Of a stretch of DNA of 64,000 bases, positions 20,831 through 47,331 are shown piece by piece; position 1 is the stretch's first letter, and every line of letters begins with the position of its first letter. The translations under genes and the position numbers were made by a program. The notes under the pieces were generated by a model. That model was not told the DNA's origin and made no database searches. It saw only the letters and a list, made by a program, of their open reading frames with translations. The stretch comes from Escherichia phage PJNS034. Location: sequence record PP391266.1; one strand, given 5' to 3'.

Positions 20831-20867
20831 TATTTTAAGCTTCTAGCGTCCGAAGGGAAATAATAGG
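20831..20867. promoter_or_regulatory. conserved intergenic element, copy A
   Basis: TATTTTAAGCTTCTAGCGTCCGAAGGGAAATAATAGG; near-identical copy at 34719-34754, core copies at 47255 and 43104. Confidence 0.45.
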
Positions 20868-20911
20868 TAATAATATAGAAGGGAGAGATGTTACTCCCTC
20901 CCAACATACTA

Positions 20912-21928
20912 TTACTTAAATGAACCTGTAGCACCCATAGAGGTATTCGAGGTAGAGCCAGAGGTTTTGCCAGAGCCAGTGGTGGTTTTGTCCATCAGTG
21001 GGTTCATCTTATTCAGAATATCCATGATAGTGTTAATATCCGTCACACCTGCATCTTTCAACTGCTGACCGACTTGGTTCATGTAGCCAGTGTCCAGTTC
21101 CTTCTGACCTTGTTGCTGCTGGAGATTACCAGACAGTAACTGGTTGAGGATAGACTGCTGACCTGCACCACTGATACGGTCAAGCTGGCCTAACGCCGAA
21201 GTACCACCTGAGATGGAGCCTAACAGACCTTGCAGACGGTTTTGAACGTTCTGCTGGTTCATGTTCTGAGAGATACCAAGACCTTGCTGATACATCTGAG
21301 AAGTCAAGTCAGCTTTCTGCTGGTTCGCTTGGTTCAAGATGTTTTGAGCAACATTGGAACTCTGCTCCATAGCTCCACGAGCAGCCACACCTTGAGCGAT
21401 AGCAGAACGACTAGAGCCAACGTTGCCTTCGCCAACACCCTGACGGTAGATTGAGGGCATTGTGTTTTCTTGGAGGTTACGCTGGATAAGGCGGTTTGCT
21501 TGCTCAACTGAGCTTTGTGCAGACTGGTCGATTGCATCAGTTTGGTTCTTGAGAAAGTCACTGTTGACCATATCAAGAGCGCCCTGAGTCAGCTTACCAG
21601 TGGTCTGGTCAAAAGCACCTTCACCCATTTGGTTCAGGCTATCAACTGTACCCCACAGCTTATCAATACCGCCCTGAGTTTGGTCAAGAACAGATTGTAA
21701 GTGACCTGACTGATTGAGACGTTGAAGCGCAGCAAGCTGTTCTTCATTCATGCTCTCAATCTGTTTCTCAGTATAGCCTTGTTCTTTTAGCTTGTTATAG
21801 ACACCATTGGCATCACCTTTAATGGCATCAATGACGTCTTTTGGCAAGCCGGTTTGAGAAGTAGAAGTCGAAGACGACTTGCTGCTGCTCTTACCTTTAC
21901 TCTTACCGAAACTTAATCCGAAACCCAT
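20912..21928 (-). CDS. Gln/Asn/Ser-rich virion protein (hypothetical)
   Basis: 338 aa, low-complexity Q/N-rich. Confidence 0.4.
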   Translation of the reverse strand: MGFGLSFGKSKGKSSSKSSSTSTSQTGLPKDVIDAIKGDANGVYNKLKEQGYTEKQIESMNEEQLAALQRLNQSGHLQSVLDQTQGGIDKLWGTVDSLNQMGEGAFDQTTGKLTQGALDMVNSDFLKNQTDAIDQSAQSSVEQANRLIQRNLQENTMPSIYRQGVGEGNVGSSRSAIAQGVAARGAMEQSSNVAQNILNQANQQKADLTSQMYQQGLGISQNMNQQNVQNRLQGLLGSISGGTSALGQLDRISGAGQQSILNQLLSGNLQQQQGQKELDTGYMNQVGQQLKDAGVTDINTIMDILNKMNPLMDKTTTGSGKTSGSTSNTSMGATGSFK

Positions 21929-24198
21929 TATGGAGTCTCCTCGTTGTTGATAGGAGGAGCCTCCGTAGAGACTCCATTCATCTTGTCATTATACAACGCA
22001 TCCAGCTTCATCTCAAGCACTTGGACTCGTTCGTCAATCAGCCCCTTCACATTACTCTGTAACAGCTCTAAGGTCGTCCTGAGTGTCTCATTGTCGGCTT
22101 TGAGTTGTCGGTTCTGAGCAGAAAGTTCCTTGATAGCCTCGATGTGCAAAGCATGTAGCTGGTTGTAATCTACAGTGTAATAGTCCTCTTCATCCTCTTC
22201 GTCATTTGGATTGTTCCCAACGAAGACGGCATTGTCATATACTCCAAGCAATTCCTGAGCAATAACGCCTGCACTTGGTACATCGGAACCGTTATACATG
22301 AACGTATAACCATTCAGCTTCTCTACAGTTTCCAAGGCATTATCAACCTTTGTAACACTGTGTTTGAGACGTTCATCCGAGGCATTAACAACCTGACCAG
22401 TAATCTGACCATTCACAGATAACTTAGATTGGTTATTTGCCAGACCTGTATTACGCTCCAGATACATGCCGTAGGGAAGACCTTCCCAACCCCATTCCAG
22501 AACAGTCTCACGAGCACCAGAGCCCCACAAACGAAGGTTAGCCTCACGACCAGCACCATTAATACGTTTCCAGTATTGAGTAGAGTTGTAGTAAGTTGCA
22601 CCATTCAAATGCGTAGGACAACCAAAAGAGGTAGCACCGTCGGTCATATTGATAGTGATAGGACGATGCCCTGTCCAGCCTCCCCAGCCGCCATCTGTAT
22701 GAGATAACAGGAAGTACATGTTTGCACCATCCTGACGGAATATGAAACCTTTGTTACCGTAGACAGCTCGGAATGAGTCAGCATGGGTCGAAGCTACACC
22801 GTAATACACAAACTTGTTAGGGTCGAAGTAACCTTTAACTGCACTGTTTGACCAGAGGTTTACTGCACCATCTGCTCGGAAGCCAAAACCTGAGTCATTA
22901 TCGCCAATAGCTAACTGTAAGGTGTTGTTAGCTTTGCTCTCAAGTTGGATTCGATTCCCAACATTCACAATGTCCTTGATGTTTGCATTACCTGAAGATG
23001 TAATGCTACGGTTGCAGATGTAACTATCTGTAGAAGTCTTCAGGTCAACTAACAAGTTGGCATTGGTTGGAGTTGTTACAGGGCCGACAGGAAATACAGC
23101 AGCATTAGGGGCAGTTCCCAACGATACTTGAGCTTTATGCAGAATTGGTGGAGTCTGAGACTCAATGTGGTATACATTATCTCCACGGACATAAACTACA
23201 AAACCGTAAAAATCCCTGCTACCAGCGAAAATGCCACCAAGTGTACGTTCATTATAATCGTAGACTGACAAAACACCGGAAACTACTTGAGGTGTATCAG
23301 ACCAACCAGATGCTTGTACAAAACCAATAAATGAGTTCTGGTTGAAGGGGTCAGTACCGCCACGAGCTGTAGATTTGATACTCAGTCGAGTAGAGTTCCA
23401 AGTTTGGTCAAGGTTAAACTGGATTGGATAGAACCAGTCTTTATTCAATCCACGGGTATCAATTACATACCGTTTACCAATGTCCTGAGAAGCAGCATTC
23501 AATTCATCAAGAGAAGGTTTACGGCCTGTATGGTACACATCTTGGTCACTGTAAGTAAGGCGCCCATCATCTTTTAGTTGAAGGTACTTATTGGTTGCAC
23601 CATTCTTCAGATAAATGTCACCAGAACCAACGCCAAGGTCAAGAACTTTATTACCAGTTAGTTGTAGGTTCCCACCCTTCGGGATGTACTTACTGTCAGA
23701 TTCACCTTTGGTATAAACACTAATCTTAGCCGCATATCCATTATCTGACTGAGCTTTAGTGTAGTATCGACCATCAGCTTCTGCTTTTGAATAGTATTGT
23801 TTGAGAGCTACCTGTACTCGTGATTCTAGGTCTTGAATCCCTTCCGCTTGCTTGTTGAAATATGCAATAGCTGCTGAGATACGTTTAGCAAAGTCAGCAA
23901 TTGTTTCATTCAGTGTGTTGATAATTGCATACTCCGTATCAGTCACACTGTCTTTGTTGAAAGCGGTACGAAGTTCAATCTCTGTGTTGGAGTTGACAGT
24001 CTTAATCTCTGCCATCATGACATTATCGTCAGCAATAGAAATCAACACCAAGTCACCCGGAGTGATTCCCATCTTATCATCAGCCCACAAGGTATTTTTA
24101 CCAGTGATTAAGGCTGAACCTGCCTTGTACGTTACCGTACCAGTTTTATACCACATACTACCTCCGAGGGAAGAAAGGCTCCAGAAGGAGCCAGTCAA
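21928..24198 (-). CDS. tail fiber/spike protein with C-terminal intramolecular chaperone (peptidase S74-like) domain
   Basis: 756 aa; C-terminal SDERLKHSVTKVD...LNGYTFMY...AQELLGVY block typical of self-cleaving chaperone domains of endosialidase-type fibers. Confidence 0.55.
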   Translation of the reverse strand: MTGSFWSLSSLGGSMWYKTGTVTYKAGSALITGKNTLWADDKMGITPGDLVLISIADDNVMMAEIKTVNSNTEIELRTAFNKDSVTDTEYAIINTLNETIADFAKRISAAIAYFNKQAEGIQDLESRVQVALKQYYSKAEADGRYYTKAQSDNGYAAKISVYTKGESDSKYIPKGGNLQLTGNKVLDLGVGSGDIYLKNGATNKYLQLKDDGRLTYSDQDVYHTGRKPSLDELNAASQDIGKRYVIDTRGLNKDWFYPIQFNLDQTWNSTRLSIKSTARGGTDPFNQNSFIGFVQASGWSDTPQVVSGVLSVYDYNERTLGGIFAGSRDFYGFVVYVRGDNVYHIESQTPPILHKAQVSLGTAPNAAVFPVGPVTTPTNANLLVDLKTSTDSYICNRSITSSGNANIKDIVNVGNRIQLESKANNTLQLAIGDNDSGFGFRADGAVNLWSNSAVKGYFDPNKFVYYGVASTHADSFRAVYGNKGFIFRQDGANMYFLLSHTDGGWGGWTGHRPITINMTDGATSFGCPTHLNGATYYNSTQYWKRINGAGREANLRLWGSGARETVLEWGWEGLPYGMYLERNTGLANNQSKLSVNGQITGQVVNASDERLKHSVTKVDNALETVEKLNGYTFMYNGSDVPSAGVIAQELLGVYDNAVFVGNNPNDEEDEEDYYTVDYNQLHALHIEAIKELSAQNRQLKADNETLRTTLELLQSNVKGLIDERVQVLEMKLDALYNDKMNGVSTEAPPINNEETP

Positions 24199-24450
24199 TT
24201 ACTGCAACTTGCTGGCTAAGTCGCCATACAGATTATTCAATTCCATCATCTGATTAGTCAGGTCGAAAATTTGATTAGAGGTTTCAATTTTAAATGAAAC
24301 CAACTGAGAGTTAAGTTCATCCACTTCTTTCTGAAGCTTACGGTTATTCTCAGCATTACTCTCAATCAAATCACGAAGTTCTTGAAGACGGCTATCGTGA
24401 GAAGACAGGGAATTTTCGATACCTGACAAGCGAAGTTCTAGTTCAGTCAT
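24199..24450 (-). CDS. small coiled-coil protein
   Basis: 83 aa ORF. Confidence 0.35.
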   Translation of the reverse strand: MTELELRLSGIENSLSSHDSRLQELRDLIESNAENNRKLQKEVDELNSQLVSFKIETSNQIFDLTNQMMELNNLYGDLASKLQ

Positions 24451-24479
24451 TATTCACCTCAATGTTGTTGATAAATTAA

Positions 24480-27362
24480 TTATAACGAAATTTGTACACG
24501 CAGTACACCGGCATTGTCGTAGAGTCGGATTGCATTATTAGAAATCTTCAGACCACGGTTTGCGGCAGTGTTATCTTGAATCAAGATATTACCATTTGAC
24601 TCCACCTTCATTCGGTTTGAAATATTCAAAGTACCACCTGTGATGTTAGTACCATTGATATTACCTCCATTAATGTTAGAGCCAGTGATGGTTGCACCAT
24701 TCAAGTTCTTAACATTAATCTGCTGTGCTGCAAGGTTCACAATAGCAGCAGTATCGATGTAGGCAGTCTTGATTCGGACTGTACCATTGATAATCTCAAA
24801 TGGATTGATGGAGTTCTTTGAGTCTCGGTTACGAACAATGAATCGGTCAGCATCAACCACAAATGCAGAGTTAGCACCACCGTTAATCAAGCCAAAACCA
24901 GCAGGTACACCAGCCACATTTGAACGAACAGCCCAAAGAGCTTCGTGCTTGTTGTTAGCACTAGATGCAACACTTGAGACTTGCTGTAAGGTAGTTTTAG
25001 TACCATTCAGGTCAGTCTGTAAAGTGTTTGCCTGAGAGGTAAGTGCATTCGTCTTATCAGTCAGAGTTTTTACCTCGTTCGTGATTCGAGAAGTGTTTGC
25101 ATTCACCTTAGCATCAACGGAAGATACACGAGATGCCATTGCGGTATCTTTGGCAGTCACCACCTTTTCCAGTGCGGCAATCTGAGCCTTAACAGAAGTG
25201 TTCACTGTTGACTCAAGGCTGTTCAGTCGAGAGGTTACGTTACCATCGAGAGTAGAAACAGATTTCTTCACATCGTTGATAGAACCTTCGGCTGTACCTA
25301 AACGAGTGCTCAGTCCAGATACCTGAGTAGCGGTTGCGTTGGCTTTATCTGCTGTTGCCTTAACATCAGTTGTCACTTGTGCAATAGTTTTGCTCTGTGA
25401 ATCTAAATTAAGAGCATTATTAACTCCCGCTTTAGAAGCAGAATCAACACTAGCAACAAGATTGTCAACCCGCTGTGCAAGAGAAGAAGTGGAATCAGCA
25501 ACTGTCTTCTTGAGTGCTTGTACCGATGCGTCATTGTCATTTACCGTTGATTGCATCGCTTCTACTTGCTTTGAAATAGCCAAGATAGCAGTAGAACGAG
25601 CTTCGCTTTCCGCCTGAATCTTAGATTCGTTACCGGCAACACGAGAATCCATGCTGTCTACTTTCTTAACTGCTGCATCCATTTTGGTGGTTACAGTGCT
25701 TTCCAGTTCGGTAACTTTAGCGATAGTCTCGCCAATACGAGATTCAGCCCCAGATACTTTCTCAGTCACAGCTTTCAGTGCATCAGCCTGAGTCTGAGTT
25801 TGTTCTTTGATTGCAGCCTCATTGTGGTTAGCTTTTGCCTCGACACCACTTAACTGAGTAGCCAGAGAACCCATAGCATCTGAGCGAGCTTTGCTTTCAT
25901 CAGTAATTCGAGTATTAGCTAACTGCACTTCTTTCTCAAAGCGTTCAGCCTGAGAGTTGATACGGTCTTCAATCTCTTGGAATTGAGTAGCGGTAAAGCC
26001 ATCTAAACCAGTCAATTGGTCACGATACATAGAAGTGGTAACGTTGATTTTACCATCCATTTCAGGACGACCCACATGCTCCATACCTTGACCAGCGGGG
26101 ATAGTGTCATATCCCATCAGGGCATAAGAACCACCTTCTGCAACTGAGTCGATGCCAATTTCCGTACCACCAAGAGCAATCAGAGATTCTTTCAGTTTTG
26201 GAAGGAACTCACCAGCATACTGATAAGTATAAACCATCTGTAAGTAATCACGATTGAAGGATGCTACACGGTCTTTGAAATCTTGAACCCATTTAGCATC
26301 ATCACCATCATTGAACGACCAGTTGTAAGCACCAGTACGTTCCTGAGTCTTACGATTGATAACGACTAAGTTAATACCGGGTTTTGCAGTTGACAGGACA
26401 GTTTCTTCACGCAGTTCACGTACACCAAAGAACTCAGGGGCAGCCGCTTCACGTGAGGATGAAGCCACTTCTTCGTGAGGAGCACCGGCAGTAGACATAT
26501 TATATGTCTTCATGAACTCAGTGCTGTTCATTGCCATCTCTCCAGCTTTCTTCGCCTCGACAAAGGCTTGGTTCGCTGTATCGTTGACGTTGGTGTACTT
26601 GGTTTCTAGATTATCAATCTTCTGAGCAGTTGATTCCTTGTCAGTAGTGATAGTCTGCTTCATCTGCTCAATGTCAGCTTTGTTGGTGTTGGACTGTGAC
26701 TTAACACCTTCAATCTGAGTAGCTGTAGCTTTGTCCTGTTCAGTTACAACCTGTTGGAATGCAGCCAATTGAGCCAGAACCAAATCATCACCAGCTTTCA
26801 CCTTCTCAGCGATATCAGATGATAGCGCATCCTTAATCCCCTGAAGGGCTTCCCCATCTGCACCAATGTTATCCCATTTCTCTTGAGCCTCTGTTGCTGA
26901 CTTATTCAGATTCGAAATCTGTTCAGACAGTTTGGTTTGAGACTCTTTAAGAGCTTCACGAGCTTCATTGGTTTCTTTCAGGAGTTGGTTAACGACTTCA
27001 TCCTGAGCGTGGGAGATATCTTCACGGAGAAACTCACTCAACTTCTTGGTAAGGGCATCTTCATCAGTAGAGATTGCATCAAGTTGCTTTTTAACTTCAT
27101 CAACTTGCTTTCCAATGTCACCAAGTTCTGTCCCATTCAGTTTGTTGATAGCCTCCCAAAGTTTCTTGATTTCTTCCTTGAGAGCTTCAATAGCAGCGGG
27201 GTCGCCTCCCGAAGAAGAGAGGCGCATCAGTTCATCAATAGCGATTTCGAGTTTGTCGAACTCAGCCATTACGTCTGCCACCGACTGAGTTAAGTCGTTA
27301 GCGGTAATAAAACCACGACGATATGGTAACGCTACTTCTAAACGCTTATTAGTGGCAGCCAT
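24480..27362 (-). CDS. long coiled-coil fiber/structural protein
   Basis: 960 aa, extensive Ser/Thr/Ala-rich helical repeats, Asn/Gly-rich C-terminal beta region. Confidence 0.45.
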   Translation of the reverse strand: MAATNKRLEVALPYRRGFITANDLTQSVADVMAEFDKLEIAIDELMRLSSSGGDPAAIEALKEEIKKLWEAINKLNGTELGDIGKQVDEVKKQLDAISTDEDALTKKLSEFLREDISHAQDEVVNQLLKETNEAREALKESQTKLSEQISNLNKSATEAQEKWDNIGADGEALQGIKDALSSDIAEKVKAGDDLVLAQLAAFQQVVTEQDKATATQIEGVKSQSNTNKADIEQMKQTITTDKESTAQKIDNLETKYTNVNDTANQAFVEAKKAGEMAMNSTEFMKTYNMSTAGAPHEEVASSSREAAAPEFFGVRELREETVLSTAKPGINLVVINRKTQERTGAYNWSFNDGDDAKWVQDFKDRVASFNRDYLQMVYTYQYAGEFLPKLKESLIALGGTEIGIDSVAEGGSYALMGYDTIPAGQGMEHVGRPEMDGKINVTTSMYRDQLTGLDGFTATQFQEIEDRINSQAERFEKEVQLANTRITDESKARSDAMGSLATQLSGVEAKANHNEAAIKEQTQTQADALKAVTEKVSGAESRIGETIAKVTELESTVTTKMDAAVKKVDSMDSRVAGNESKIQAESEARSTAILAISKQVEAMQSTVNDNDASVQALKKTVADSTSSLAQRVDNLVASVDSASKAGVNNALNLDSQSKTIAQVTTDVKATADKANATATQVSGLSTRLGTAEGSINDVKKSVSTLDGNVTSRLNSLESTVNTSVKAQIAALEKVVTAKDTAMASRVSSVDAKVNANTSRITNEVKTLTDKTNALTSQANTLQTDLNGTKTTLQQVSSVASSANNKHEALWAVRSNVAGVPAGFGLINGGANSAFVVDADRFIVRNRDSKNSINPFEIINGTVRIKTAYIDTAAIVNLAAQQINVKNLNGATITGSNINGGNINGTNITGGTLNISNRMKVESNGNILIQDNTAANRGLKISNNAIRLYDNAGVLRVQISL

Positions 27363-27365
27363 AAT

Positions 27366-29090
27366 TTATCGAACTCCTCCTGCGACAATATCTAAGTCGT
27401 AGCCTGTAAATGCCCAACGACCGATATTATCATCTGTGAATCGCATAGCGATGTATTTATTGTTGGTTCGGAATGAAGTTTGGTACTGCTGACCAATGGT
27501 AAACATTTGCTGTTCTTTCCAATTTGGTGCCGAGTTAGAGTCATTAACACCACCAACTTCGATACGAACTGAACCCTCACCAGTGAATTGAGGGTAGCAT
27601 TTACGAACCTTCACATTCCCCCAAGTCTGTAGGCCAACCTCGTCAAAGTCCAACTGACGACGTTCCATTCGTGCCAGAAGAGGCTTCTGAACACTTTGAT
27701 AAACATCCTGAGTAATTGGGATAATAGCACCTGAGTCGGGCTTGTTATATGCCTCTGTGAACTCGTCGTTATAGAATCGCTCACCAGTATCAATCTGGAA
27801 TACTGTACCGAACTTGCCCATAGCAACAAAGTGTTGAGATGCAAAGTTCTGAGAAGTGATTTCCCACTGTTCAAGAGGGTCAACATTTGCCCAAGAGTGT
27901 TTCGGGTCGTTAACATCCTGACCATCATAGTCTTCCCATTTACGGGTATCAACTGCCAGAGGTGCTACGAGGTTTACGTCTGTGTTATCTGGAAGGTCAT
28001 AGAAAGTCCAAGTATCGAACTCCCAATTCCATACAGCAGCACGGTTCGTAGTCCAGTCACCTTCGTTACGTAAGTCAGTACCGGGACGTGCATAACACAC
28101 CCAAATCTCTTTCTTTGGATAAATGGTGAATACACGAGTTGCCAGTGGGTTAACAGAGGTAATCTCACGCATCAATCGTTCACGAATACGACCAGCAACA
28201 ATAGACTTACGAGAAGAACCGTCATGAACGTATACGTCGTTGTTAGAGATTACGAAGTGCTTACCATCGAACTCTGCAACACATTGACGTCCAAGAATAC
28301 CGGAACCAGAGAACAGCTTGGTGAAACGGAAGATAGAGTTACCACCGATGAACTGCATCTGGAAGGTATCTTCTGTAGTGTAGATGATGAATGAGTCACG
28401 CATAGGCAGACCATCAATAATCTCACCAGTTGCATCAGTCAGGTCGTTAAAACCAGCACTGTTAGTTGTAGAGCGGTCATCCCAATCTTGTGGAAGGTCG
28501 TTTACATCGGCAATGTCACTCCAGCGAATACGCTGTGGATACTCTTTACCATCCTCGAAGGTGTTCAGAGCAATCAGGAAGTTTTTGTATGAACGCATCA
28601 GATAGGTACGCCATTCCAACTTCACCTTCTTACCATCTGCACCAGTAACCATACCCCACTCAGGTAATGGCTGGAACTTCTCTTCTGTTGGACGAATGCC
28701 TTGAGGTTCATCACCAAGGTTGTTCATTACCAAGCAGTTTGACAAGGTTGTATAGTACCAAGTCTGAGAAGGACGAGCATTGTATCCATCGAGAGTAGAA
28801 GAAGCAATAATTACATCTGTTGGAGATTTAATTTTGTAGAGATTCTTGGTTGTACCGATAATCCATGAAGAGTCTGTACGGGTATCACGAAGCCCTGCAA
28901 TTGCCAGAGTTACTTCACCATCCTTAACCTTACGCTCCATTGCACGGGAGTTACCACCAAACTTCTCAACCTTAGAACCTTCAAAGCGAACGTTCTGAGC
29001 ATCATTCCACGCATTAGGTGGAAGGTCATATGGAGGGATATCTGAGATAACTCCCACCTGACCAACATTTCGAACTTTATACGTTGGCAT
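27366..29090 (-). CDS. virion structural protein (tail/baseplate-like)
   Basis: 574 aa; RBS AAAGGA. Confidence 0.4.
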   Translation of the reverse strand: MPTYKVRNVGQVGVISDIPPYDLPPNAWNDAQNVRFEGSKVEKFGGNSRAMERKVKDGEVTLAIAGLRDTRTDSSWIIGTTKNLYKIKSPTDVIIASSTLDGYNARPSQTWYYTTLSNCLVMNNLGDEPQGIRPTEEKFQPLPEWGMVTGADGKKVKLEWRTYLMRSYKNFLIALNTFEDGKEYPQRIRWSDIADVNDLPQDWDDRSTTNSAGFNDLTDATGEIIDGLPMRDSFIIYTTEDTFQMQFIGGNSIFRFTKLFSGSGILGRQCVAEFDGKHFVISNNDVYVHDGSSRKSIVAGRIRERLMREITSVNPLATRVFTIYPKKEIWVCYARPGTDLRNEGDWTTNRAAVWNWEFDTWTFYDLPDNTDVNLVAPLAVDTRKWEDYDGQDVNDPKHSWANVDPLEQWEITSQNFASQHFVAMGKFGTVFQIDTGERFYNDEFTEAYNKPDSGAIIPITQDVYQSVQKPLLARMERRQLDFDEVGLQTWGNVKVRKCYPQFTGEGSVRIEVGGVNDSNSAPNWKEQQMFTIGQQYQTSFRTNNKYIAMRFTDDNIGRWAFTGYDLDIVAGGVR

Positions 29091-29150
29091 CTAATAAATC
29101 CTTTGGGTTTGTGTCAAGTTTTATTTTAGCACATTTGCTGTCGTTGTATA

Positions 29151-29174
29151 CAAGAAAACCCTCCGAAGAGGGTT
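29151..29174 (-). terminator. rho-independent terminator (minus strand)
   Basis: On minus strand AACCCTC-TTCG-GAGGGTT followed by TTTCTTG. Confidence 0.5.
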
Positions 29175-29180
29175 AACTTA

Positions 29181-30065
29181 TTAGGCAGTACGTTGCCAGA
29201 TGAACATCGCAAAGCCTGGGTCATATGTATCGAAACGAGCGTTACCACCAGTGTTCTGAGAACGGAAGTCGATTCGGTGTGAGTGATTACCAGCCGCAGA
29301 GGTGTTGGTATCAATATACAGGAATCGGTCGTTATCGTTATCTGAACCTTTGGAACCGAGGTTACGGTTATAGCCACCCGGAGTTGGTTCGATAAAAGGC
29401 AGTGACCATACAGTCGTGTTTGCTTCGATGTAGTAACGGTCACGGTATGGGTGGGTGTGGTTCCCAGCATCCTGGGTCTGACCTACAACTTGGTGGCTGT
29501 GAGCAGGTAAGTTACCTTCAACCAACTGAGTTTTATAGAAGCCCGGAGTCTTACCAACGTTAGGGAAGTTGATAGAATCACGACCATCTGAGTCAGAGCC
29601 TTGACCTACAATATAACGACCAGCAGCAATACGAACCCAAGTACCTACGCCAAGTAACTGAGCAGGGTTTTGGTTTACCATAGTGAAGTACACAGAGCCT
29701 ACAGGCCATGCTTGTCCACGAGCTGCTGCTGAGTTGAAGTAAGCAAGAGTTACTGCATCCTGAGGAGCAGCAGGGTTGGATACGTTCTGAAGACGGTTGC
29801 CACCACAGTTCATGGTCTTATTAGCTGCCATCGTTACAGAACCATTGATAGTCACATCACCATTCGTGTTAGTAGCTGAGAACGTCTTATCAAGGTTATT
29901 CAACTTGTCAGCACTCATTGTGACAACTTTGTTGATATTCGGGAAGGTAGTTTTCAGTACCTGCTTAATCAAACGGAGGTGGTCATCACCTTCTTTAATC
30001 AAGTCAACGTTACGCGGGAATGATGGATTGAGTTGGTCAATAGTGTTAGCTACTTCTACACTCAT
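29181..30065 (-). CDS. tail fiber protein
   Basis: 294 aa; DAVTLAYFN and G-rich beta region reminiscent of phage fiber/collar domains. Confidence 0.45.
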   Translation of the reverse strand: MSVEVANTIDQLNPSFPRNVDLIKEGDDHLRLIKQVLKTTFPNINKVVTMSADKLNNLDKTFSATNTNGDVTINGSVTMAANKTMNCGGNRLQNVSNPAAPQDAVTLAYFNSAAARGQAWPVGSVYFTMVNQNPAQLLGVGTWVRIAAGRYIVGQGSDSDGRDSINFPNVGKTPGFYKTQLVEGNLPAHSHQVVGQTQDAGNHTHPYRDRYYIEANTTVWSLPFIEPTPGGYNRNLGSKGSDNDNDRFLYIDTNTSAAGNHSHRIDFRSQNTGGNARFDTYDPGFAMFIWQRTA

Positions 30066-30310: not shown

Positions 30311-30314
30311 TCGA

Positions 30315-34672: not shown

Positions 34673-34718
34673 GTTTCACCTCGTTGAAATAACACTTCCC
34701 TTCTTCAACTTTTCATGC

Positions 34719-34754
34719 TATTTTAAGCTTCTAGCGTCCGAAGGGAATAATAGG
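34719..34754. promoter_or_regulatory. conserved intergenic element, copy B
   Basis: TATTTTAAGCTTCTAGCGTCCGAAGGGAATAATAGGG, 35/37 identical to copy A. Confidence 0.45.
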
Positions 34755-34929
34755 GTATGTATTACCAACCCATAGTTTTCTTCACCTTCTCCCACACTTC
34801 ATCATCGTATGGGGTCTTGGTGTTCTTCACTAACACATCAATTGATGCTTTAGCGATAGCTTGAGTCAGTTGCAAACCAAGAGCCTTCATAGCCCAAGTC
34901 AGAACGATTGGCATAATGCCTCCTACAAT

Positions 34930-35193: not shown

Positions 35194-35208
35194 ACAAACC
35201 TCATAAAC

Positions 35209-35511: not shown

Positions 35512-35531
35512 CGTTGGAGGAAGGTCGGTTA

Positions 35532-35993: not shown

Positions 35994-36005
35994 TCACGAT
36001 TCCTC

Positions 36006-37303: not shown

Positions 37304-37324
37304 GAGTTTGTTTCCTCAATAGTG

Positions 37325-38537: not shown

Positions 38538-38550
38538 CCTTTCTTACCTC

Positions 38551-40731: not shown

Positions 40732-40740
40732 CGCTCCTAA

Positions 40741-42240
40741 TTAATAAGCGTTATTGAAGTTATTCCAGTTGTCATTATAACTCATTGAGCCATTAAGTCC
40801 AGCATGTTCTGAAATACCTCGATGGGTAACAGACAATGCTGCATAACGCATAGCATCCACAGAGTCATCTTCGACCTTTTTAATCTTACCTTCTTTACGT
40901 TGGTAAGAGCGCATTTCTTCGAAGATTTTATGACAAGTGTTGAAGATTTTGAATCGACCGGTTTTCATTCGCTGGAGAATTTCCATGATGCCGGGTTCAA
41001 CAAAGTTATTTTTCTTCCCATCAAACCCGATTGGGTTGTAGAAAGTGTCTGGCTGTACGTTCACACCAGCTTCACGATAGTACATAGCAACACTACGTCC
41101 AGAACCACGTTCAACGTTGTCAGCGTCGTGAGGCAGAACAACAGGAATCCAAGTCCCTCGTTGGTTAATGGCGTGTGCGTGGATGGCTGGGATGCCTTCG
41201 GCTGCTGCATAGTGGTCATAGATGTAAATCGTGTCTGTATCGACGTCATAAGCCGCCCAAGAAGCCGCAGTATCGTGGTTGATACCGATATCAACACCAC
41301 ATACACGAGGCCAATGGTCTGGAATTTTGAAGGGTTCCACCTTAATGGATTCTTCACTAACTGGATACACGAGTCCGCTCCCCAAGATTGGTAAACCTTT
41401 AGAACGCATGTCATGTTGCCACTCAGGAATAGACGCCAGAAGCTCTTTCTTCGTCTCTTCACTCAGGTGAGGTGCATCATCCCACGTTGCGTTCTGCCAA
41501 TACAGTGCTCCAGACTCATCATTCATGAACTTCTTAACCAGTTCAGTCAGACCGTTCTCAGGAGTAGCTGTGATAGTTACAAGACCGCCTGTAGTAGCTG
41601 TACGAGTAACACATTGTGCATAAATCTGCATTGAACGATAAGGGTCTTCTTCGTCAATCCAGATAAAATCAACTGTAGCACCCATCAGAACGTGTTCACC
41701 CTGCTGGGTAGAACGAAATTCGATAGTGCTGTAACCATCTTGACGTCCTTTCGCATCAAAATGCTTAATTCGACAGGCCAGAATACGTTGACCGTCTTTT
41801 GCCAGCGAATCAAAGTCGATATATTTCTTCGGAATAGCACCAGTACCAATAGCTTTTGTATCACGCACGTCAGCAGTACCGAACAATTCCTTCTGAAGCA
41901 CCTTCTGGGTTGATTCACCAGTAATACCAACACACCAAGCTAGAATCGGCTTCTCAAAACGATGCCCATCCCACCAATCCTTATATACGCCTGTAAGGTG
42001 CTGAGACACTTCCTGTGCCTCTGAAAAGGATTTACCAATACGGTTAGCTGCACAAAGAAAACGTCGCTTAAAACGCTTCCCAGCCGCATAGAAATCGCGT
42101 TGGAATTTGTAAGGTTTGAAGTAATCCAGCGAGTTGTAGCGTTGATACTGCTCTCGCATCTGGATTAGCTCCAGTAACTCAATCTTGTCGTCAGGAGATA
42201 AGGCTGACAGGTCGAGTCCTTGCAGAATTTCATCAATCAT
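40741..42240 (-). CDS. terminase large subunit
   Basis: 499 aa; Walker A CAANRIGKS, Walker B DFIWIDEE, C-terminal RNase-H-like nuclease block GVDIGINHD. Confidence 0.85.
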   Translation of the reverse strand: MIDEILQGLDLSALSPDDKIELLELIQMREQYQRYNSLDYFKPYKFQRDFYAAGKRFKRRFLCAANRIGKSFSEAQEVSQHLTGVYKDWWDGHRFEKPILAWCVGITGESTQKVLQKELFGTADVRDTKAIGTGAIPKKYIDFDSLAKDGQRILACRIKHFDAKGRQDGYSTIEFRSTQQGEHVLMGATVDFIWIDEEDPYRSMQIYAQCVTRTATTGGLVTITATPENGLTELVKKFMNDESGALYWQNATWDDAPHLSEETKKELLASIPEWQHDMRSKGLPILGSGLVYPVSEESIKVEPFKIPDHWPRVCGVDIGINHDTAASWAAYDVDTDTIYIYDHYAAAEGIPAIHAHAINQRGTWIPVVLPHDADNVERGSGRSVAMYYREAGVNVQPDTFYNPIGFDGKKNNFVEPGIMEILQRMKTGRFKIFNTCHKIFEEMRSYQRKEGKIKKVEDDSVDAMRYAALSVTHRGISEHAGLNGSMSYNDNWNNFNNAY

Positions 42241-42460
42241 AGAAGCCTCTCACTTCTGTATCGACGGCTCGACACCGCCAACCTTTAACTTTCACATCAC
42301 AGTGCATTAAAAGGGTTAAGTCTTCATCCTTAATCCCTTGTTCCAGAGCAAATTTTCGAGGGTGGCTGACGACGACATGTTCAAATGGGTCAGCATCCTT
42401 GTAGAACTCATAGGTGCGTACAGTCAGAATACCATCATCCGAGTAAATCATCGCCAGCAC
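42233..42460 (-). CDS. hypothetical protein
   Basis: 75 aa ORF between terS and terL. Confidence 0.3.
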   Translation of the reverse strand: MLAMIYSDDGILTVRTYEFYKDADPFEHVVVSHPRKFALEQGIKDEDLTLLMHCDVKVKGWRCRAVDTEVRGFYD

Positions 42461-42463
42461 CTC

Positions 42464-42919
42464 TTAGTTACTTTCTGGAACAGCAACAGTCAGCTTAATA
42501 CCAGCCAACTTGTCTGCAATCATCTTGTCCAGCTCTTCAGCAGTCAGTTCTTCATCATTCTTAATGTCCACTTCAACAGAAGCAGCTTTAGGATAGACGA
42601 TATCGACCAGCTTCATAGCAGCCATCAGACGCTCTTTAGGAGTAGCTGTGGGGCTTTCCATCACATCAATGAGGTATTCATCAGGGCGAATACGAGCGTT
42701 TGCTATAGCGTCTAACATTTGCTGTGTGAGCTTGTTACGGGAGCCTTTCTTACGACCGCGACCAAAATTATTGCCGGGTAAGAAGGTGTTTTTGACAAGA
42801 TTTCGACCTTTCGAGCAGGGATGGCCTTCTTCACTGAAAAATTCAATGGTTTTGCCTTTATACTCGTCTCCTACGCTGAGATGAGAGTAATCATCCACAT
42901 AAGTCTTTTCATTAGACAT
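42464..42919 (-). CDS. putative terminase small subunit
   Basis: 151 aa, basic GRGRKKGSRNK region, first gene of late arm. Confidence 0.4.
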   Translation of the reverse strand: MSNEKTYVDDYSHLSVGDEYKGKTIEFFSEEGHPCSKGRNLVKNTFLPGNNFGRGRKKGSRNKLTQQMLDAIANARIRPDEYLIDVMESPTATPKERLMAAMKLVDIVYPKAASVEVDIKNDEELTAEELDKMIADKLAGIKLTVAVPESN

Positions 42920-42920
42920 T

Positions 42921-43048
42921 CATGCCACCTAATAATGGGGTTAGTTGAAAGATACACTGTAAGATGGAACCATTCATGCCAGTTCATCTACATGCCATGT
43001 CATAAGTATACACTGATAAGAGGCTATCATGCCACCTCATACATGCCA
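42921..43048. repeat. five direct repeats of CATGCCA (minus strand TGGCATG) upstream of terS
   Basis: Copies at 42921, 42975, 42991, 43028, 43042 with similar flanks. Confidence 0.55.
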
Positions 43049-43103
43049 GTCCATACTTCTGTGGGGATATAGGTAAGAGATGCTACATCTTACACTACTT
43101 ATA

Positions 43104-43125
43104 CCTATTATTTCCCTTCGGAATA
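43104..43125 (-). promoter_or_regulatory. conserved intergenic element, copy D (inverted)
   Basis: Minus strand reads TATTCCGAAGGGAAATAATAGG; contains TATTCC-GAAG-GGAATA hairpin. Confidence 0.4.
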
Positions 43126-43793
43126 TAATGTTTAGGGTACAGGAAGAAGTGCCATATGACAAGACTTATTTACCAATTGAATTACAAATTCAGTGAATTT
43201 ATAAGTGTGAGATAACAAAGTGTGGATATTGCTCACTTTTTAACCAGAAACGTAAATTTCACTTGAGCGGTATGTGGCATATCAGCTTTAGCATAATGTT
43301 CAAAAAGGGGGAACGGGTTCCGCTCATGTTCCGGCGTGTGAATGAGGCGTGTAGACTACCACTAGCCCCTACCCTGAGTCAATACCCTCACTGGTCTGAT
43401 GAGTGTGACTGCTCAAGTAGTAACCGTGTGATGCCGTGTGATGAGTACCCATCGTGCATAGTTATTCATGATAATTTATTTTTGGATAGCCTGAATAAAT
43501 AATAGCCAGTGACCCGTTAGAATCTGCGTGCGTGTCTGATACTGCCTGAGTTATACCTCCATAACGCCAACGTTTAAACGGTGTATTGATAACGGGTAAC
43601 AAGCCAGCGACAAGTGAATAAATATTCCAAGAGATAGCATATCTAATCAATCTATCTTCTCTTTATTCCTTTTACAGTGTAATTCTTATTTGTTTATAAG
43701 TAATAATTCTCCTCGACCTATTGACAATTACCGTCGAGTAAATTACGCGTGTGTTTCATTACGTCTTAAAGAAATGATTTGTTTGTTTTGCTA

Positions 43794-43821
43794 TTGACTT
43801 TTTAACTCATTCGTTTAATAT
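43794..43821 (+). promoter_or_regulatory. sigma70-like promoter candidate
   Basis: TTGACT, 16-17 nt spacer, TAATAT. Confidence 0.4.
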
Positions 43822-43876
43822 AGCTCCCCGTTGAAACGCAGAACATCGCGGAGTAAACAAGTTAATCACTAAGTGG

Positions 43877-43905
43877 TTGACTGAATCGGGTTAGTATGTT
43901 TTAAT
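43877..43905 (+). promoter_or_regulatory. sigma70-like promoter candidate
   Basis: TTGACT, 17 nt spacer, TTTAAT. Confidence 0.35.
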
Positions 43906-44086
43906 GCTTACCGATTCAAACGCTCTTTAAAAATGTGGTCTGTCTTTAGGTGGTGTTTAACATCATTACTACAAGGCGCTTAGTTAGTTATCTGGTTTTG
44001 ATTCCTGTTTCATTAGTGATTCAGGCGGATTGATAAAGCATCTTCAATAAGTCTTTAACAGTTCGATACTTCGAAGAAATTAACGA

Positions 44087-44114
44087 TTGACAGCGTACTA
44101 GATTCCTGTAAGAT
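44087..44114 (+). promoter_or_regulatory. sigma70-like promoter candidate
   Basis: TTGACA, 16 nt spacer, TAAGAT. Confidence 0.4.
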
Positions 44115-44232
44115 AGACCACGTTTTAACGCTCTTTAACAATATGAATCATTAACGCTTAAACGTTAGTTTAATCAGACGTTATCAAGTGAAGCTGAAAA
44201 GTAACACGATAACAAATGATGAAAATAAACGG

Positions 44233-44260
44233 TTGACAGCGTGAAATGATTCGGTATAAT
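44233..44260 (+). promoter_or_regulatory. strong sigma70-like early promoter
   Basis: Consensus TTGACA, 16 nt spacer, consensus TATAAT, about 480 nt upstream of first early gene. Confidence 0.6.
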
Positions 44261-44741
44261 GAGCGCCATCGAATGACAGAACGTTGTCAGACGATAGCCG
44301 GATAAGTGGATAACTTATAACGGCAGTTCGATAAAGTAGTGTGGTAGCGGGTAGCGGTATGTAACACGGATAATCTACGGATTAACGGCTTATTTGTTGC
44401 TTGCTTAAAGCATAAAACGTCGGGCGGCACGATGGGAGAAGTGCATAAAATCAATTAGGCTCCCTGACTCTTTAACAATTAGGAAACTACGCACCACAAT
44501 TAACGTTGGATAACGTAAAGAGTGGGTTAATTTAGGGTGATTCCCTGCGTAGGCTTGTCGAGCTGATAACAGCGGTATGTGATGGACGCTTATATACTCC
44601 CTCCATGATAGTGTATGACTGATTCCACCTAGGCCAAAGTGAAAGGGCGATAACGAATAGCAAGTAACAATCTCGTTTGATATGGGCATTTAATAGTGAG
44701 TGTCCAGATTAAACGATAAAACTGAATTGAGGATTAAACCT

Positions 44742-45323
44742 ATGTCTATCTTAATTGCTGACCTGATTCGTAACGCTGACGGTGTTAACTCTCTGGCTGA
44801 CTCTATCCAGTCCGAAGGTAAAAAGCTGGATAACATGATTCATCTGGCGCTGGCTTCTGCTACTGTTCTGGTGCATGAGCATGGCGATGTTACCGTGTTA
44901 AACCGTGTCATTAACAAGCTGTCTTCTGGTGTCCGTACCAATGCGGCTCGTGCTTTCGCTGAAACTTTCGCTCCGGTAACTTTCGATAAGAAAGCAAAAG
45001 AGTTCCGCTTCAACAAACACAAACGCAATGAAGCATTCATTGACAGTGAAGCGGCGAAAGAAATGTGTGAAACTGTCTGGACTAAATTCCGTCCTGAGCC
45101 TGAGTATAAGCCAATGAATCTGGCTGACTCTTTCACTAAGCTGATTGACCGTGCCGCTAACGATATGGATAAGAACGACACCATTTCCGAAGCACAAATC
45201 GCTCTGCTGCGCTCTTTCCAAGAGCAATTGGTAACACTCCAGACCAAAGAAGCGGCTGAACGTGATGCGGCAAAGGCACAAGCTGCAATCGCTGACGCTC
45301 CGGCTGAGGAAGTAGCGGCATAA
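44742..45323 (+). CDS. first early protein (hypothetical)
   Basis: 193 aa from ATG with RBS GAGGA. Confidence 0.5.
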   Translation: MSILIADLIRNADGVNSLADSIQSEGKKLDNMIHLALASATVLVHEHGDVTVLNRVINKLSSGVRTNAARAFAETFAPVTFDKKAKEFRFNKHKRNEAFIDSEAAKEMCETVWTKFRPEPEYKPMNLADSFTKLIDRAANDMDKNDTISEAQIALLRSFQEQLVTLQTKEAAERDAAKAQAAIADAPAEEVAA

Positions 45324-45348
45324 GATAGGCGATAGTCTATAAACATCT

Positions 45349-45387
45349 AGCCCCTTGCATTGAATAAATGTGAGGGGCTTTTTGTTT
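45349..45387 (+). terminator. rho-independent terminator
   Basis: AGCCCCT-N17-AGGGGCT followed by TTTTTGTTT. Confidence 0.55.
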
Positions 45388-45396
45388 ATGTACTGA

Positions 45397-45717
45397 ATGG
45401 AATTAATCCGCATGACTCCTTTACAGATTAGACGTAACGCCAAACGTAAGGCGGCAGCAATGAAACAAGTTGTAACTCTCAAGTCTAAGCGTGAGAAAAC
45501 TTTACTCATTACTCCACCTGACGATGTTAAAAAGATTGTGGATAACTTTAAGTTCCCATCTGGTAAAACGTTTCGGGCTGTTCCCACTCGCAACAAAGGC
45601 ACTGATGCGAAAGGTGCTAGCAGTGCTGATAAGATTGCTTGCCGTGGTAAACAGAAGTGTAAAGGGTCTAGCGTTAGGCCGTCTGGTTGGTATAGCAAGT
45701 CACAATTAGCGGGGTAA
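45397..45717 (+). CDS. hypothetical basic protein
   Basis: 106 aa, Lys/Arg-rich. Confidence 0.35.
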   Translation: MELIRMTPLQIRRNAKRKAAAMKQVVTLKSKREKTLLITPPDDVKKIVDNFKFPSGKTFRAVPTRNKGTDAKGASSADKIACRGKQKCKGSSVRPSGWYSKSQLAG

Positions 45718-45718
45718 C

Positions 45719-45979
45719 ATGGCTGCGGGATATTTAGGCGGTGATTGTGTACACGGTGAGATTCAAGCCGTTGTAGATAACGCCGTTGACTTTGCCCGTT
45801 CTCAATTGAATTGTGGCGAGTCAGAAATGTTTTGTCTTGAATGTGATGAAGAAATCCCACAAGCAAGGCGTGAGGTTGCGAAAGGCTGCAAGTATTGTAT
45901 TACCTGCCAGTCTAAGCACGATAGAAAACAAGCCAGCCAATTCAACAGGCGAGGCAGTAAAGATAGTCAATTGAGGTAA
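45719..45979 (+). CDS. TraR/DksA-family C4 zinc-finger protein
   Basis: CLEC-x17-CITC spacing matches TraR/DksA C-x2-C-x17-C-x2-C finger. Confidence 0.5.
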   Translation: MAAGYLGGDCVHGEIQAVVDNAVDFARSQLNCGESEMFCLECDEEIPQARREVAKGCKYCITCQSKHDRKQASQFNRRGSKDSQLR

Positions 45980-45983
45980 TAGA

Positions 45984-46565
45984 ATGAGTCAGTGGTCTGA
46001 GTTTTACAAAGGGCGTCTAGGTGGACGCTATCAAGCCCACGTTTTAAAGCAGTATGCCCCATTCATCAATCGAATCATTCAGGCTGGGCGTGGTATCAGT
46101 TCGCCAGTGGTTAACTTCCGTGAGGAGGGCGCTGGTATTGGTACGGTTACGGCTATCCTGCAACAATATGCTGAGTCTCGCTTTGACTTAGACAACTGGA
46201 AGTTTGAAATGGTTGACCGTTGCCCTGAAATGGCTGAGTTAGCTTTTCAAAATACCGGTGTACGCTGTGAGATATTCGATATCCTTAAACGGCGTGAAAT
46301 GCTGGATTCTTTACGGCCTCACATTATCCATTCTCATGGTGTACTTGAACACTTCGAGGACGATGATATACGGGCAATCATTGACAATCAGCGTACACTT
46401 GCAAAGTCTTGTGTAATTGCATACGTTCCCACTAACGGCTATGAAAAGCCTAGCTTCGGTGATGAACGGCTCTTAGATGTGAAACATTGGGTCAAAGAGT
46501 TTAGACCTACAGATGTTCACGCTTTCAACAATGGCTGCGACCTGATGCTTTACTGGCGGGCGTAG
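45984..46565 (+). CDS. putative SAM-dependent methyltransferase
   Basis: 193 aa; FREEGAGIG resembles class-I MTase motif I, acidic FEMVD motif II; substrate unknown. Confidence 0.35.
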   Translation: MSQWSEFYKGRLGGRYQAHVLKQYAPFINRIIQAGRGISSPVVNFREEGAGIGTVTAILQQYAESRFDLDNWKFEMVDRCPEMAELAFQNTGVRCEIFDILKRREMLDSLRPHIIHSHGVLEHFEDDDIRAIIDNQRTLAKSCVIAYVPTNGYEKPSFGDERLLDVKHWVKEFRPTDVHAFNNGCDLMLYWRA

Positions 46566-46568
46566 TTT

Positions 46569-46580
46569 ACTACTGTGACG
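46569..46580 (+). repeat. 12-mer ACTACTGTGACG, copy 5
   Basis: Exact, 3 nt after stop of methyltransferase-like gene. Confidence 0.9.
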
Positions 46581-46688
46581 GGTGGCTCTTATGGTCGAGT
46601 ATGGTGAAGAAGATTTTGTTAAGGCGGCTAATCGCTTCTGGCTTTGGGTCGCTATCGTTGGGACTGTAATTATCTGGGCGGTGTGCTG

Positions 46689-46886
46689 ATGGAAGTATTA
46701 ACAATGTTCGCTGTGTTCGTCATAGAGCTTCTCTGGGTGCATCCTATGGCATTCTTCGCAGACTTAGGTGCTGCGGGTCACTTTGGCTGGTCTTTGGCCT
46801 TCCTGATGGTGTACGGGCTGTTTATCGCTACGTTGCCATACAATATCCTCAAGCTATTCATTAAACGTAAGGAAATCCCTGCATGA
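46689..46886 (+). CDS. small membrane protein
   Basis: About 65 aa, two hydrophobic helices; start uncertain. Confidence 0.35.
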   Translation: MEVLTMFAVFVIELLWVHPMAFFADLGAAGHFGWSLAFLMVYGLFIATLPYNILKLFIKRKEIPA

Positions 46887-47209
46887 TTACTATCGGAGAC
46901 CGTGTACTGTATCGTTATTCACCTGCTGGCTTACCTGTGTATGGTGTGGTAGCTGATGTGTTTCAAGGTGTTGCGGCTGTAAGGGTTAACATTGAGAACC
47001 CAAACCAGACAAGAAGCGGCACTAAGGCGCTAGTCATGTATCGTAAGGTGGAAAGCTGGGAGCCTTTGAGTGAGAAGTCGCCTCTTCACGATGATTTTGT
47101 GTTGCTTGTACTGCCTCATAACGTTCGTATTTGGATTGTTAAGCAGTTGAAACGACACTCCGTAACACCCGTCATGCTTGAAAAGCTGATGGATATGAGC
47201 CGAGTTTAA
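46883..47209 (+). CDS. hypothetical protein
   Basis: 108 aa ORF, ATGA overlap. Confidence 0.4.
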   Translation: MITIGDRVLYRYSPAGLPVYGVVADVFQGVAAVRVNIENPNQTRSGTKALVMYRKVESWEPLSEKSPLHDDFVLLVLPHNVRIWIVKQLKRHSVTPVMLEKLMDMSRV

Positions 47210-47217
47210 TCCGGCTA

Positions 47218-47246
47218 TTGACAACCTTCGGATGTGACGGTAAGCT
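47218..47246 (+). promoter_or_regulatory. weak sigma70-like promoter candidate
   Basis: TTGACA, 17 nt spacer, TAAGCT (poor -10). Confidence 0.3.
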
Positions 47247-47263
47247 AAGCCCAAGCGTCCGAA

Positions 47264-47331
47264 GGGAATATTACTAAGAAATAATATAAGAAAGATTATA
47301 TCTAACTATATTACTTCTTATTAATATTCCC
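47264..47331 (+). repeat. long inverted repeat: 17-bp stem (1 mismatch) with 34-nt AT-rich loop
   Basis: GGGAATATTACTAAGAA ... TTCTTATTAATATTCCC; left arm overlaps conserved element copy C. Confidence 0.55.

Follow-up and report, generated by a model that had tools for sequence, protein, structure and literature searches.

A four-copy intergenic repeat of Escherichia phage PJNS034 with sigma-70 promoter-like anatomy and a conserved downstream module

Escherichia phage PJNS034 is a distant phiEco32/SU10-like podovirus. The stretch of its DNA analyzed here, further called the window (64,000 nucleotides of sequence record PP391266.1, numbered from its first letter), represents nearly the whole genome, and four of its intergenic regions carry copies of one repeat, designated A, B, C and D. 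This repeat is genuine and conserved, and it is confined to the PJNS034 clade. Judged by its letters, the stretch originally noticed is the -10 element plus the first ~30 predicted transcribed bases of a host-type promoter, and the four copies are probably sigma-70 promoters, all read in one common orientation. The explanation that we place before all others, still tentatively, is a sigma-70 promoter cassette combined with a shared factor-responsive module. With the same reserve, the copies can be regarded as paralogues of a single ~55-bp cassette, composed of a host-type promoter and a conserved control sequence.

Copies of the repeat and their distribution among relatives

An initial annotation of the window had described an element of ~36 nt, with near-identical copies A and B and mere cores at C and D. 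All four copies are present within 1-3 nt of the positions given there. The element itself is real and its homology is longer, as all four copies can be aligned over about 45-50 nt; C and D are full-length copies and not just cores. Copies A and B are near-identical indeed, the actual figure being 36/37 instead of 35/37, with an extra A in copy A as the sole difference. Their distance from the next late gene, put at about 60-90 nt, is 61 nt (A) and 47 nt (B) when counted to its start codon.

The 16-mer AGCGTCCGAAGGGAAT occurs exactly at 34733-34748 and 47254-47269 and with one mismatch at 20845-20860. When up to three mismatches are allowed, it has five matches in the window against 0.31 expected, a number reached in none of 100 shuffles. 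Copies A and D, inverted relative to each other, share a perfect 21-nt match (20849-20869 versus 43102-43122). Searched with a profile of all copies, the window gives exactly four sites (E = 2e-15 to 2e-10, next match at E > 7), and Pantoea phage TacPo2 likewise four; a motif search over the genome and its relatives had been suggested in the initial annotation. Among 50,697 phage records the element was found only in TacPo2 and in Serratia phage KSP100, and a check for host origin gave no match in 5,426 E. coli genomes. An exact 14-mer scan of IMG/VR returned 106 loci, each with a single chance match and none multi-copy, and is therefore uninformative.

TacPo2 and KSP100 (the latter a 5.5-kb fragment) are the closest GenBank relatives of PJNS034. 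TacPo2 shares ~76% nucleotide identity with the window across half of the late region and is fully syntenic with it; its genes are all annotated as hypothetical. Metagenomic relatives, denoted by L numbers, were retrieved via adaptor, ejection-protein and methyltransferase genes. A search of IMG/VR with the adaptor protein and an adaptor alignment yielded only distant phiEco32-like or 7-11-like phages and none from the PJNS034 clade, and a scan of JGI metagenomes with a terS alignment yielded a single distant contig, L138, with no recognisable element on it. The methyltransferase homologues P0025 and P0026 pointed to unrelated phages and were rejected as a route to relatives.

The virion module of PJNS034 (portal, major capsid protein, adaptor) is SU10/phiEco32-like. 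Early and middle genes, with ten tRNAs among them, occupy the plus strand from ~44.7 kb to the end of the window and from 1 to 13.9 kb, and the late genes lie on the minus strand from terS (42919) down to 14022. The region between 43.0 and 44.7 kb is non-coding and contains strong sigma-70 promoters; sigma-70 promoters and intrinsic terminators of ordinary type are found throughout the genome.

All four copies occupy syntenic places in TacPo2, and the KSP100 fragment carries B. Copy A is present in every lineage examined (seven lineages, with L118, L119/L120, L121, L122 and L139/L140), down to ~62% protein identity, always just downstream of a late-sense terminator hairpin. Copy D precedes terS in L110, L111, L114, L115 and L123, with GCAG and AGTG as variant centres of its core. 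The insert with B is missing from L110, L111, L114 and L115, where the adaptor gene directly adjoins a 50-aa gene; B therefore arose recently as a duplicate of A, in the PJNS034/TacPo2/KSP100 branch only, and A and D are old. Copy C was checked in three close genomes only.

Promoter anatomy of the four copies

In the common orientation (A, B and C on the plus strand, D on the minus strand) the copies are alignable over ~50 nt and share the pattern (TGn)TAnnnT, AARC, 7-9 nt, (T)CCGRAGGG(A)A, (A/T)ATWAT, AGG. The -35 hexamers lie upstream of this homology, where the sequences of the copies are unrelated. In A, C and D the -35 matches TTGACA at 5-6 of six positions and stands exactly 17 bp from TAnnnT. 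Only 1.8% of TAnnnT hexamers in the window have a -35 with at least 5/6 matches at 16-18 bp, which gives P ~2e-5 for three of four copies. Orthologues have -35 hexamers with 4-6 matches. TAnnnT is found in every copy and orthologue, and TGn in A, B and most D copies; the middle three bases of the -10 match poorly. TGn offsets weakness of the -35, as C has a perfect -35 and no TG and B a weak -35 and TG, a compensation known from real sigma-70 promoters. The presence of near-consensus -35s upstream of the homology, their retention in orthologues and the fact that the reverse reading offers only TTCCCT and no TG argue for a sigma-70-type promoter in each copy. Coordinates are summarized in Table 1.

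The initial annotation had correctly observed that the orientation of the repeat is inconsistent with respect to flanking genes: the predicted promoter is sense at D (late operon) and at C (plus-strand genes) and antisense at A and B. The doubt about a promoter that it derived from this is not supported, since each of the four contains a sigma-70-type promoter whose internal orientation never varies. Its suggestion of an antisense promoter fits A and B, both of which carry predicted antisense promoters of sigma-70 type. Set beside the host sigma-70 promoters known from virulent phages, those of extended -10 type among them, the copies are alike in a TTGACA-like -35 at 16-17 bp, in TAnnnT and compensating TGn, and in host-type architecture in a phage without its own polymerase or sigma gene. 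They differ from the usual case in their poor -10s (TACCCT, TAAGCT, TATTTT), in having the peak of conservation downstream of the -10, and in that two of four copies point against the genes.

Copy A, antisense to the late genes, keeps its -35, 17-bp spacing and TG in TacPo2, L118, L119, L121, L122 and L139/L140 despite diverged surroundings; the -35 varies between TTTACA, TTTACT and TTGATT, always at 17 bp and always with TG. The terminator facing it is conserved as a hairpin with T-rich tail in all six aligned relatives. Back-to-back with A lies a late-sense promoter-like site, A2, which is identical in TacPo2, L118 and L119 and not kept in L121 or L122. Small plus-strand open reading frames (ORFs) downstream of A are not conserved in TacPo2 and were discarded. 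The antisense promoter of copy B is identical in TacPo2 and KSP100. B is not located directly behind a late-sense terminator, the nearest one being ~460 nt upstream with two small genes between.

Copy C is sense for plus-strand genes starting at 47350, among them those for a membrane protein, a signal-peptide protein, a lipoprotein and a cell-wall hydrolase. Its orthologue reads TTGACA-17-TATGCT in TacPo2 and L123. The AT-rich hairpin in its leader starts with its 5' arm within the module, ends just before the ribosome binding site of the small ORF at 47350, and is retained by TacPo2 and L123, where one pair is compensatory. Copy D is sense for the late operon, and the interval from the late-sense terminator 43325-43311 to terS has no other promoter-like site. 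Its -35 reads TGGACA in TacPo2, TTGTCA in L110 and L123, TTGATA in L114, TAGACA in L111 and TTTACA in L115 (the last by eye), thus five different hexamers across six phages. The D module can be also read as a second promoter, TAAACA-16-AATAAT (43134 to 43107), with a score of 9/12.

Table 1. Coordinates of the repeat copies and of associated features in the window.
Feature	Position	Strand	Sequence and remarks
Copy A, initial annotation	20831-20867		
Copy B, initial annotation	34719-34754		
Copy A, predicted promoter	20808-20836	+	-35 TTTACA (20808-20813), 17-bp spacer, TGg, -10 TATTTT (20831-20836); 9/12 plus TG
Copy A, downstream module	20849-20869	+	TCCGAAGGGA (20849-20858), AATAAT (20859-20864), AGGTA; 21/21 match to D
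Late-sense intrinsic terminator	20876-20903	-	after 338-aa ejection-protein gene; copy A would fire into it from the opposite side
A2, late-sense promoter-like site	20792-20820	-	TTGAGT-17-TATAAT; back-to-back with copy A
Copy B, predicted promoter	34696-34724	+	-35 TTCCCT (34696-34701; 3/6), 17-bp spacer, TGc (34716-34718), -10 TATTTT (34719-34724)
Copy B, downstream module	34737-34756	+	TCCGAAGGGA, AATAAT (34746-34751), AGGGT
Copy C, predicted promoter	47218-47246	+	perfect -35 TTGACA (47218-47223), 17-bp spacer, -10 TAAGCT (47241-47246), no TG
Copy C, downstream module	47258-47275	+	TCCGAAGGGA, AATATT (47267-47272)
Copy C, AT-rich leader hairpin	47262-47333	+	27-nt arms; z = -3.9, 0/200 shuffles fold as well
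Copy D, predicted promoter	43134-43162	-	-35 TTGTCA (43162-43157), 17-bp spacer, -10 TACCCT (43139-43134)
Copy D, downstream module	43102-43122	-	TCCGAAGGGA (43122-43113), AATAAT (43112-43107), AGGTA
Late-operon internal intrinsic terminators (n=5)	36383-36360, 35240-35222, 29174-29157, 20903-20876, 18944-18929	-	

When the cassette is read in the opposite direction, A and B would become late-sense promoters with TAAAAT as the -10, where an activator-bound core, CCCTTCGGA, replaces the -35 in the manner of the T4 MotA box, or the cassette would act in both directions. We consider this unlikely, although several observations agree with it. The other strand indeed reads TAAAAT, TAGGGT or TAGCTT (all TAnnnT) 10-12 nt after the core. 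In phiEco32 the homologous locations, upstream of the adaptor gene and of gene 26, have sense late promoters; a late-sense terminator invariably lies ahead of A, and the gene that comes next has no other late-sense promoter before it in L122. The insertion of B before the adaptor gene is also most easily understood as the gain of a sense promoter. Furthermore, bacterial bidirectional promoters are described with TAnnnTA as their symmetric -10 core, in which A(-11) and T(-7) are reciprocally paired and divergent starts are 18 bp apart (PMC10268837). The block takes the forms TATTTTA, TAAGCTA and TACCCTA in the window and TATAATA and TAAACTA in relatives, so that A and B might gain late-sense output through divergent starts. 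The likeness to the bidirectional promoters extends to TAnnnTA(A) with the reciprocal A(-11)/T(-7), but here only one direction possesses a good -35 and TG. In the reversed direction the -35 region is TTCCCT (3/6) with no TG, D and C would be directed away from the late genes and would oppose the early genes, and the head genes would be left without any promoter. Neither a phage sigma nor a MotA-like gene was found, and the consensus-like -35s kept in A, C, D and their orthologues would be without explanation.

The downstream module and late gene control

Downstream of the predicted promoter, each copy carries a module in which the core TCCGAAGGGA adjoins a -10-like AATAAT, itself followed by AGG (core sequence of the repeat module: CCGAAGGG). 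The core forms a TCC-N4-GGA dyad, in which the centre varies between relatives (GAAG, GCAG, AGTG, GTTG) and the half-sites are conserved. On the predicted transcripts the core occupies about +5 to +14 and the hexamer about +14 to +21; the whole module of copy A spans ~+5 to +25. The hexamer is AATAAT or AATATT in all window copies and TATTAT in L115/L122, followed by AGG or GGG. TCC-N4-GGGA abuts (A/T)ATAAT at A, B, D and A2, and AATATT at C, in sense direction only at D, C and A2. At A2 it belongs to a second dyad, TCCGTTGGGA (20807-20798), placed directly at the TATAAT. In the L115/L122 phage, A and D both read GGGATATTATAGTAATATA. Copies within one genome thus evolve in concert, which suggests a co-evolving trans-acting factor. 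The transcription factor binding site considered in the initial annotation is in agreement with the core just downstream of the -10, which would suit a shared regulatory site.

Late genes of well-studied phages are under positive control, exerted by an antiterminator (Q) or an activator (Lpa) (PMC10695390). Such control would be useful in PJNS034, whose late operon contains five internal terminators, two of them with an identical CCCTC-TTCG-GAGGG hairpin. Late-sense -10-like sites follow three of the five: TGcTAAAAT (29150-29123), A2 (20820-20792) and TATAAT near 18900. In the mechanism that we propose, D would drive the late structural operon, C the downstream genes for membrane proteins and the cell-wall hydrolase, and A and B would fire antisense inside the late operon. 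The shared module would be the point where a phage-encoded factor acts on sigma-70 polymerase, so that the four transcripts could switch together. The factor would bind the CCGRAGGG/TCC-N4-GGA core and sigma region 2 would engage the adjacent AATAAT. This could take the form either of an activator-dependent start that lacks a -35, like the P1 Lpa-dependent late promoters, or of a sigma-dependent pause close to the promoter, during which the polymerase becomes modified, like that of lambda PR'. Still more caution than for the cassette as a whole applies to the suggestion that the module confers positive late control as a site for protein plus sigma. Antisense output of A and B possibly provides cis-antisense RNA over the 3' ends of upstream genes (at A, over the terminator as well); polymerase collision or a roadblock sharpening the expression step, or merely extra factor-binding sites, are possible too.

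At lambda PR', a sigma-70-dependent promoter-proximal pause loads the antiterminator Q, the pause element being AACGAT followed by GGG (PMC4005639). The PJNS034 cassette resembles it in combining a sigma-70 promoter with an early-transcribed -10-like hexamer followed by Gs (AATAAT-AGG versus AACGAT-GGG), in a possible protein site just upstream of the hexamer, and in a long late operon with internal terminators. The lambda hexamer lies at +1 to +6, that of PJNS034 at about +15 to +20; unlike in lambda, no Q homologue was found, no terminator stands right after D, and there are four copies per genome, two of them antisense. In P1 late promoters dependent on Lpa, a small inverted repeat precedes the -10 in place of the -35. 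Traits that may be shared here are several genome copies, service to structural and lysis genes, host sigma-70 polymerase, and a dyad beside a -10 without a -35, represented at D by TAAACA-16-AATAAT. The repeat of P1 is bound by Lpa and used together with the -10 (PMC10695390). Differences are that the PJNS034 dyad is only TCC-N4-GGA and abuts the -10-like hexamer, that a complete upstream sigma-70 promoter is conserved as well, and that no Lpa homologue was found.

Middle and late promoters of phiEco32 dependent on gp36 contain the motif AATGTA centred at -11.5, which is read by this phage sigma (PMC12276001). Besides a related virion module, both phages have conserved intergenic motifs before the adaptor and distal ejection-protein genes; in phiEco32, AGACCTA-N14-TAATGTATA stands at the homologous places ahead of genes 13 and 26. 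In contrast to phiEco32, the orientation at A and B is reversed, the copies do not bear the gp36 motif and no gp36 homologue was found. AATGTA is absent from A, B and C; D contains TAATGTTTA on the plus strand in PJNS034 only, with no retention in TacPo2, L123 and L114. A gp36-type promoter was rejected, with the motif absent at the sites and no sigma gene found in the window. Sites for sigma-54, sigma-32, sigma-28, sigma-E, CRP, IHF and RcsAB were also considered by eye and dismissed for misfits in spacing or key bases.

Scans of ~80 ORFs with PHROGs or Pfam gave no match to a sigma factor, Q, Lpa or a repressor. The best tblastn match of phiEco32 gp36 to the window had an E of 0.18, ~1.7 kb of the genome being outside the window. 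The only transcription-related protein in the scans is a DksA/TraR-like zinc-finger protein (45719-45979), and PJNS034 appears to depend on host sigma-70 polymerase throughout. Two genes that synteny offered as candidates for a sigma were rejected, as the product of 7270-7935 looks beta-rich by eye and that of 8137-8916 has, also by eye, an SSB-like acidic tail; no PDB sequence match was obtained. The latter, a 259-aa protein of unknown PHROG family coded on the plus strand and ending with DDDDRPF, is by this tail probably a phage single-strand DNA-binding protein (SSB).

Several points weigh against the proposed cassette and its mode of action. As the main late promoter, D would have a very weak -10 (TACCCT), and there is no terminator between D and terS that would correspond to lambda tR'. 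Neither an Lpa-like nor a Q-like scheme explains the antisense copies A and B. No candidate regulator gene was identified in the ~80 ORFs. The dyad comprises only 3+3 bp and its left half is altered in L122 (TCG) and L139 (GCC), so the core may be read as plain sequence and not as a symmetric site. The block TAnnnTA is symmetric, and start sites on the other strand may exist. Finally, the promoter role of the cassette is predicted from sequence.

The position of the core just past the start of four promoters (+5 to +15), as well as in the spacer of A2, is typical of repressors. The core could therefore be a repressor operator, with A and B serving mainly as extra binding or titration sites and release being timed by genome replication. 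In agreement with this, the half-sites are conserved around a variable centre, and the spacer of C itself contains a second, inverted partial core, CCTTCGGA (47225-47232). We nevertheless find an operator improbable. If D were merely derepressed, its TACCCT would make it a weak promoter for the proteins needed in greatest abundance, and positive control is the rule for late genes of well-studied phages (PMC10695390). The PHROGs and Pfam scans of the ~80 ORFs revealed no helix-turn-helix or ribbon-helix-helix protein, and the complete A promoter kept across seven lineages would be left without explanation.

A comparably small chance is given to action of the conserved stretch as RNA. The four transcripts would then share the 5' leader UCCGAAGGGAAAUAAUAGG, purine-rich and nearly C-free, which is bound by an RNA-binding protein or serves as a seed or antisense partner. 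The module is located at ~+5 to +25 of all four predicted RNAs, and by length the A leader ranks second and the D leader third among the C-free runs of their respective strands. Late mRNA at A and B shows perfect complementarity to the 5' leaders from D and C, with A and D complementary over 21 nt. The module also forms the 5' arm of a hairpin in both C and B RNAs, of which the C leader is strongly structured and the predicted B antisense RNA moderately (z = -2.7). On the other hand, the TCC/GGA stem has 3 bp only, an alignment of D orthologues contains no compensatory pairs and no conserved structure around the core, and the D leader folds no better than shuffled sequence. Rfam matches in the window are limited to tRNAs even at E up to 1. 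The RNA processing element named in the initial annotation thus receives no support: Rfam gives no match, no hairpin is conserved around the core, and clear structure is seen in the C leader alone.

Other structural readings were rejected as well. An intrinsic terminator does not agree with a stem of just 3 bp, true terminators nearby being CCCTC-TTCG-GAGGG with a T run, and a UUCG/GAAG tetraloop hairpin or decayed terminator is opposed by the same short stem and by the lack of covariation. A long leader hairpin downstream of D is not conserved and has z = +0.4, no better than shuffled sequence. We observed that the repeat core resembles a decayed half of the CCCTC-TTCG-GAGGG terminator hairpin.

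The copies might also be left over from recombination, or from a mobile cassette of promoter and stem-loop, with no shared function now. Cassettes of this kind are described in T4 as PeSL. B is a lineage-specific duplicate of A, a hairpin follows A and C, and the predicted B transcript folds into one too. Near-perfect conservation at ~76% genome identity and syntenic maintenance across lineages sharing only about 60% protein identity make such an origin without present function highly improbable.

Returning to the promoter cassette with its factor-responsive module, its farthest-reaching version is bold and rather improbable. Here, a virulent C3-type podovirus without its own sigma or polymerase would time its late genes by means of a new factor, which captures sigma-70 polymerase at the -10-like repeat beside CCGRAGGG. 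Copy A and its duplicate B would use the same switch to set the ratio of head, tail and ejection proteins by antisense RNA or polymerase collision.

Neighboring features and biological meaning

The non-coding region around D and the early genes beyond it contain further signals. Plus-strand signals at 43794-44500 and 45349-45379 comprise a cluster of four strong early promoters, one of them a perfect TTGACA-16-TATAAT at 44233, and a strong terminator directly 3' of the first gene (44700-45323). On the minus strand at 43311-43390, sigma-70-like TTGACT-17-TAGTCT (TTGACA-17-TAAGCT in L110) is followed ~40 nt later by the intrinsic terminator 43325-43311; this unit may produce a very short early RNA. 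The block CCGCTCAAGTGAAATTT, conserved in all relatives, comes after this terminator. The interval between D and terS (42920-43100, minus sense) contains five GGCATG and two ACAGTGTAT repeats, present also in L110, L111, L114 and TacPo2, and may be the terminase-binding (pac) region.

A different repeat, the 12-mer ACTACTGTGACG, occurs in eight exact copies and once as ACTACTATGACG (positions 23, 5031, 8839, 13849, 46569, 48481, 50640, 54355 and 59973, all on the plus strand). Its copies are confined to the block of plus-strand genes, mostly within or at the start of coding regions, with a GTG or ATG resembling a start codon in two cases, and the syntenic sites are conserved in TacPo2. An RNA-level site, a Chi-like site or a priming signal are possible roles. 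Genes for a COOH-NH2 ligase, an amidoligase, a glutamine amidotransferase, an ATP-grasp/S6-modification-like protein and a gamma-glutamyl cyclotransferase at 54361-61311 (plus strand), together with a nucleoside 2-deoxyribosyltransferase at 12166-12807, suggest DNA base hypermodification.

The cassette would represent a clade-specific and so far undescribed wiring of late gene control, a variant of known phage regulatory designs. For phiEco32-like phages lacking the gp36 sigma, it marks the most likely site at which late genes are switched. Its four copies, two sense and two antisense, and their orthologues with informative substitutions represent natural test templates, and promoters can now be annotated in PJNS034, TacPo2 and the metagenomic relatives, whose records are almost all 'hypothetical'. 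Should the module be a sigma-dependent pause or an Lpa-like core, the reach of these mechanisms would widen from temperate phages to a group of lytic podoviruses. Activity of the antisense copies would make them a conserved case of antisense control within an operon for phage structural proteins.

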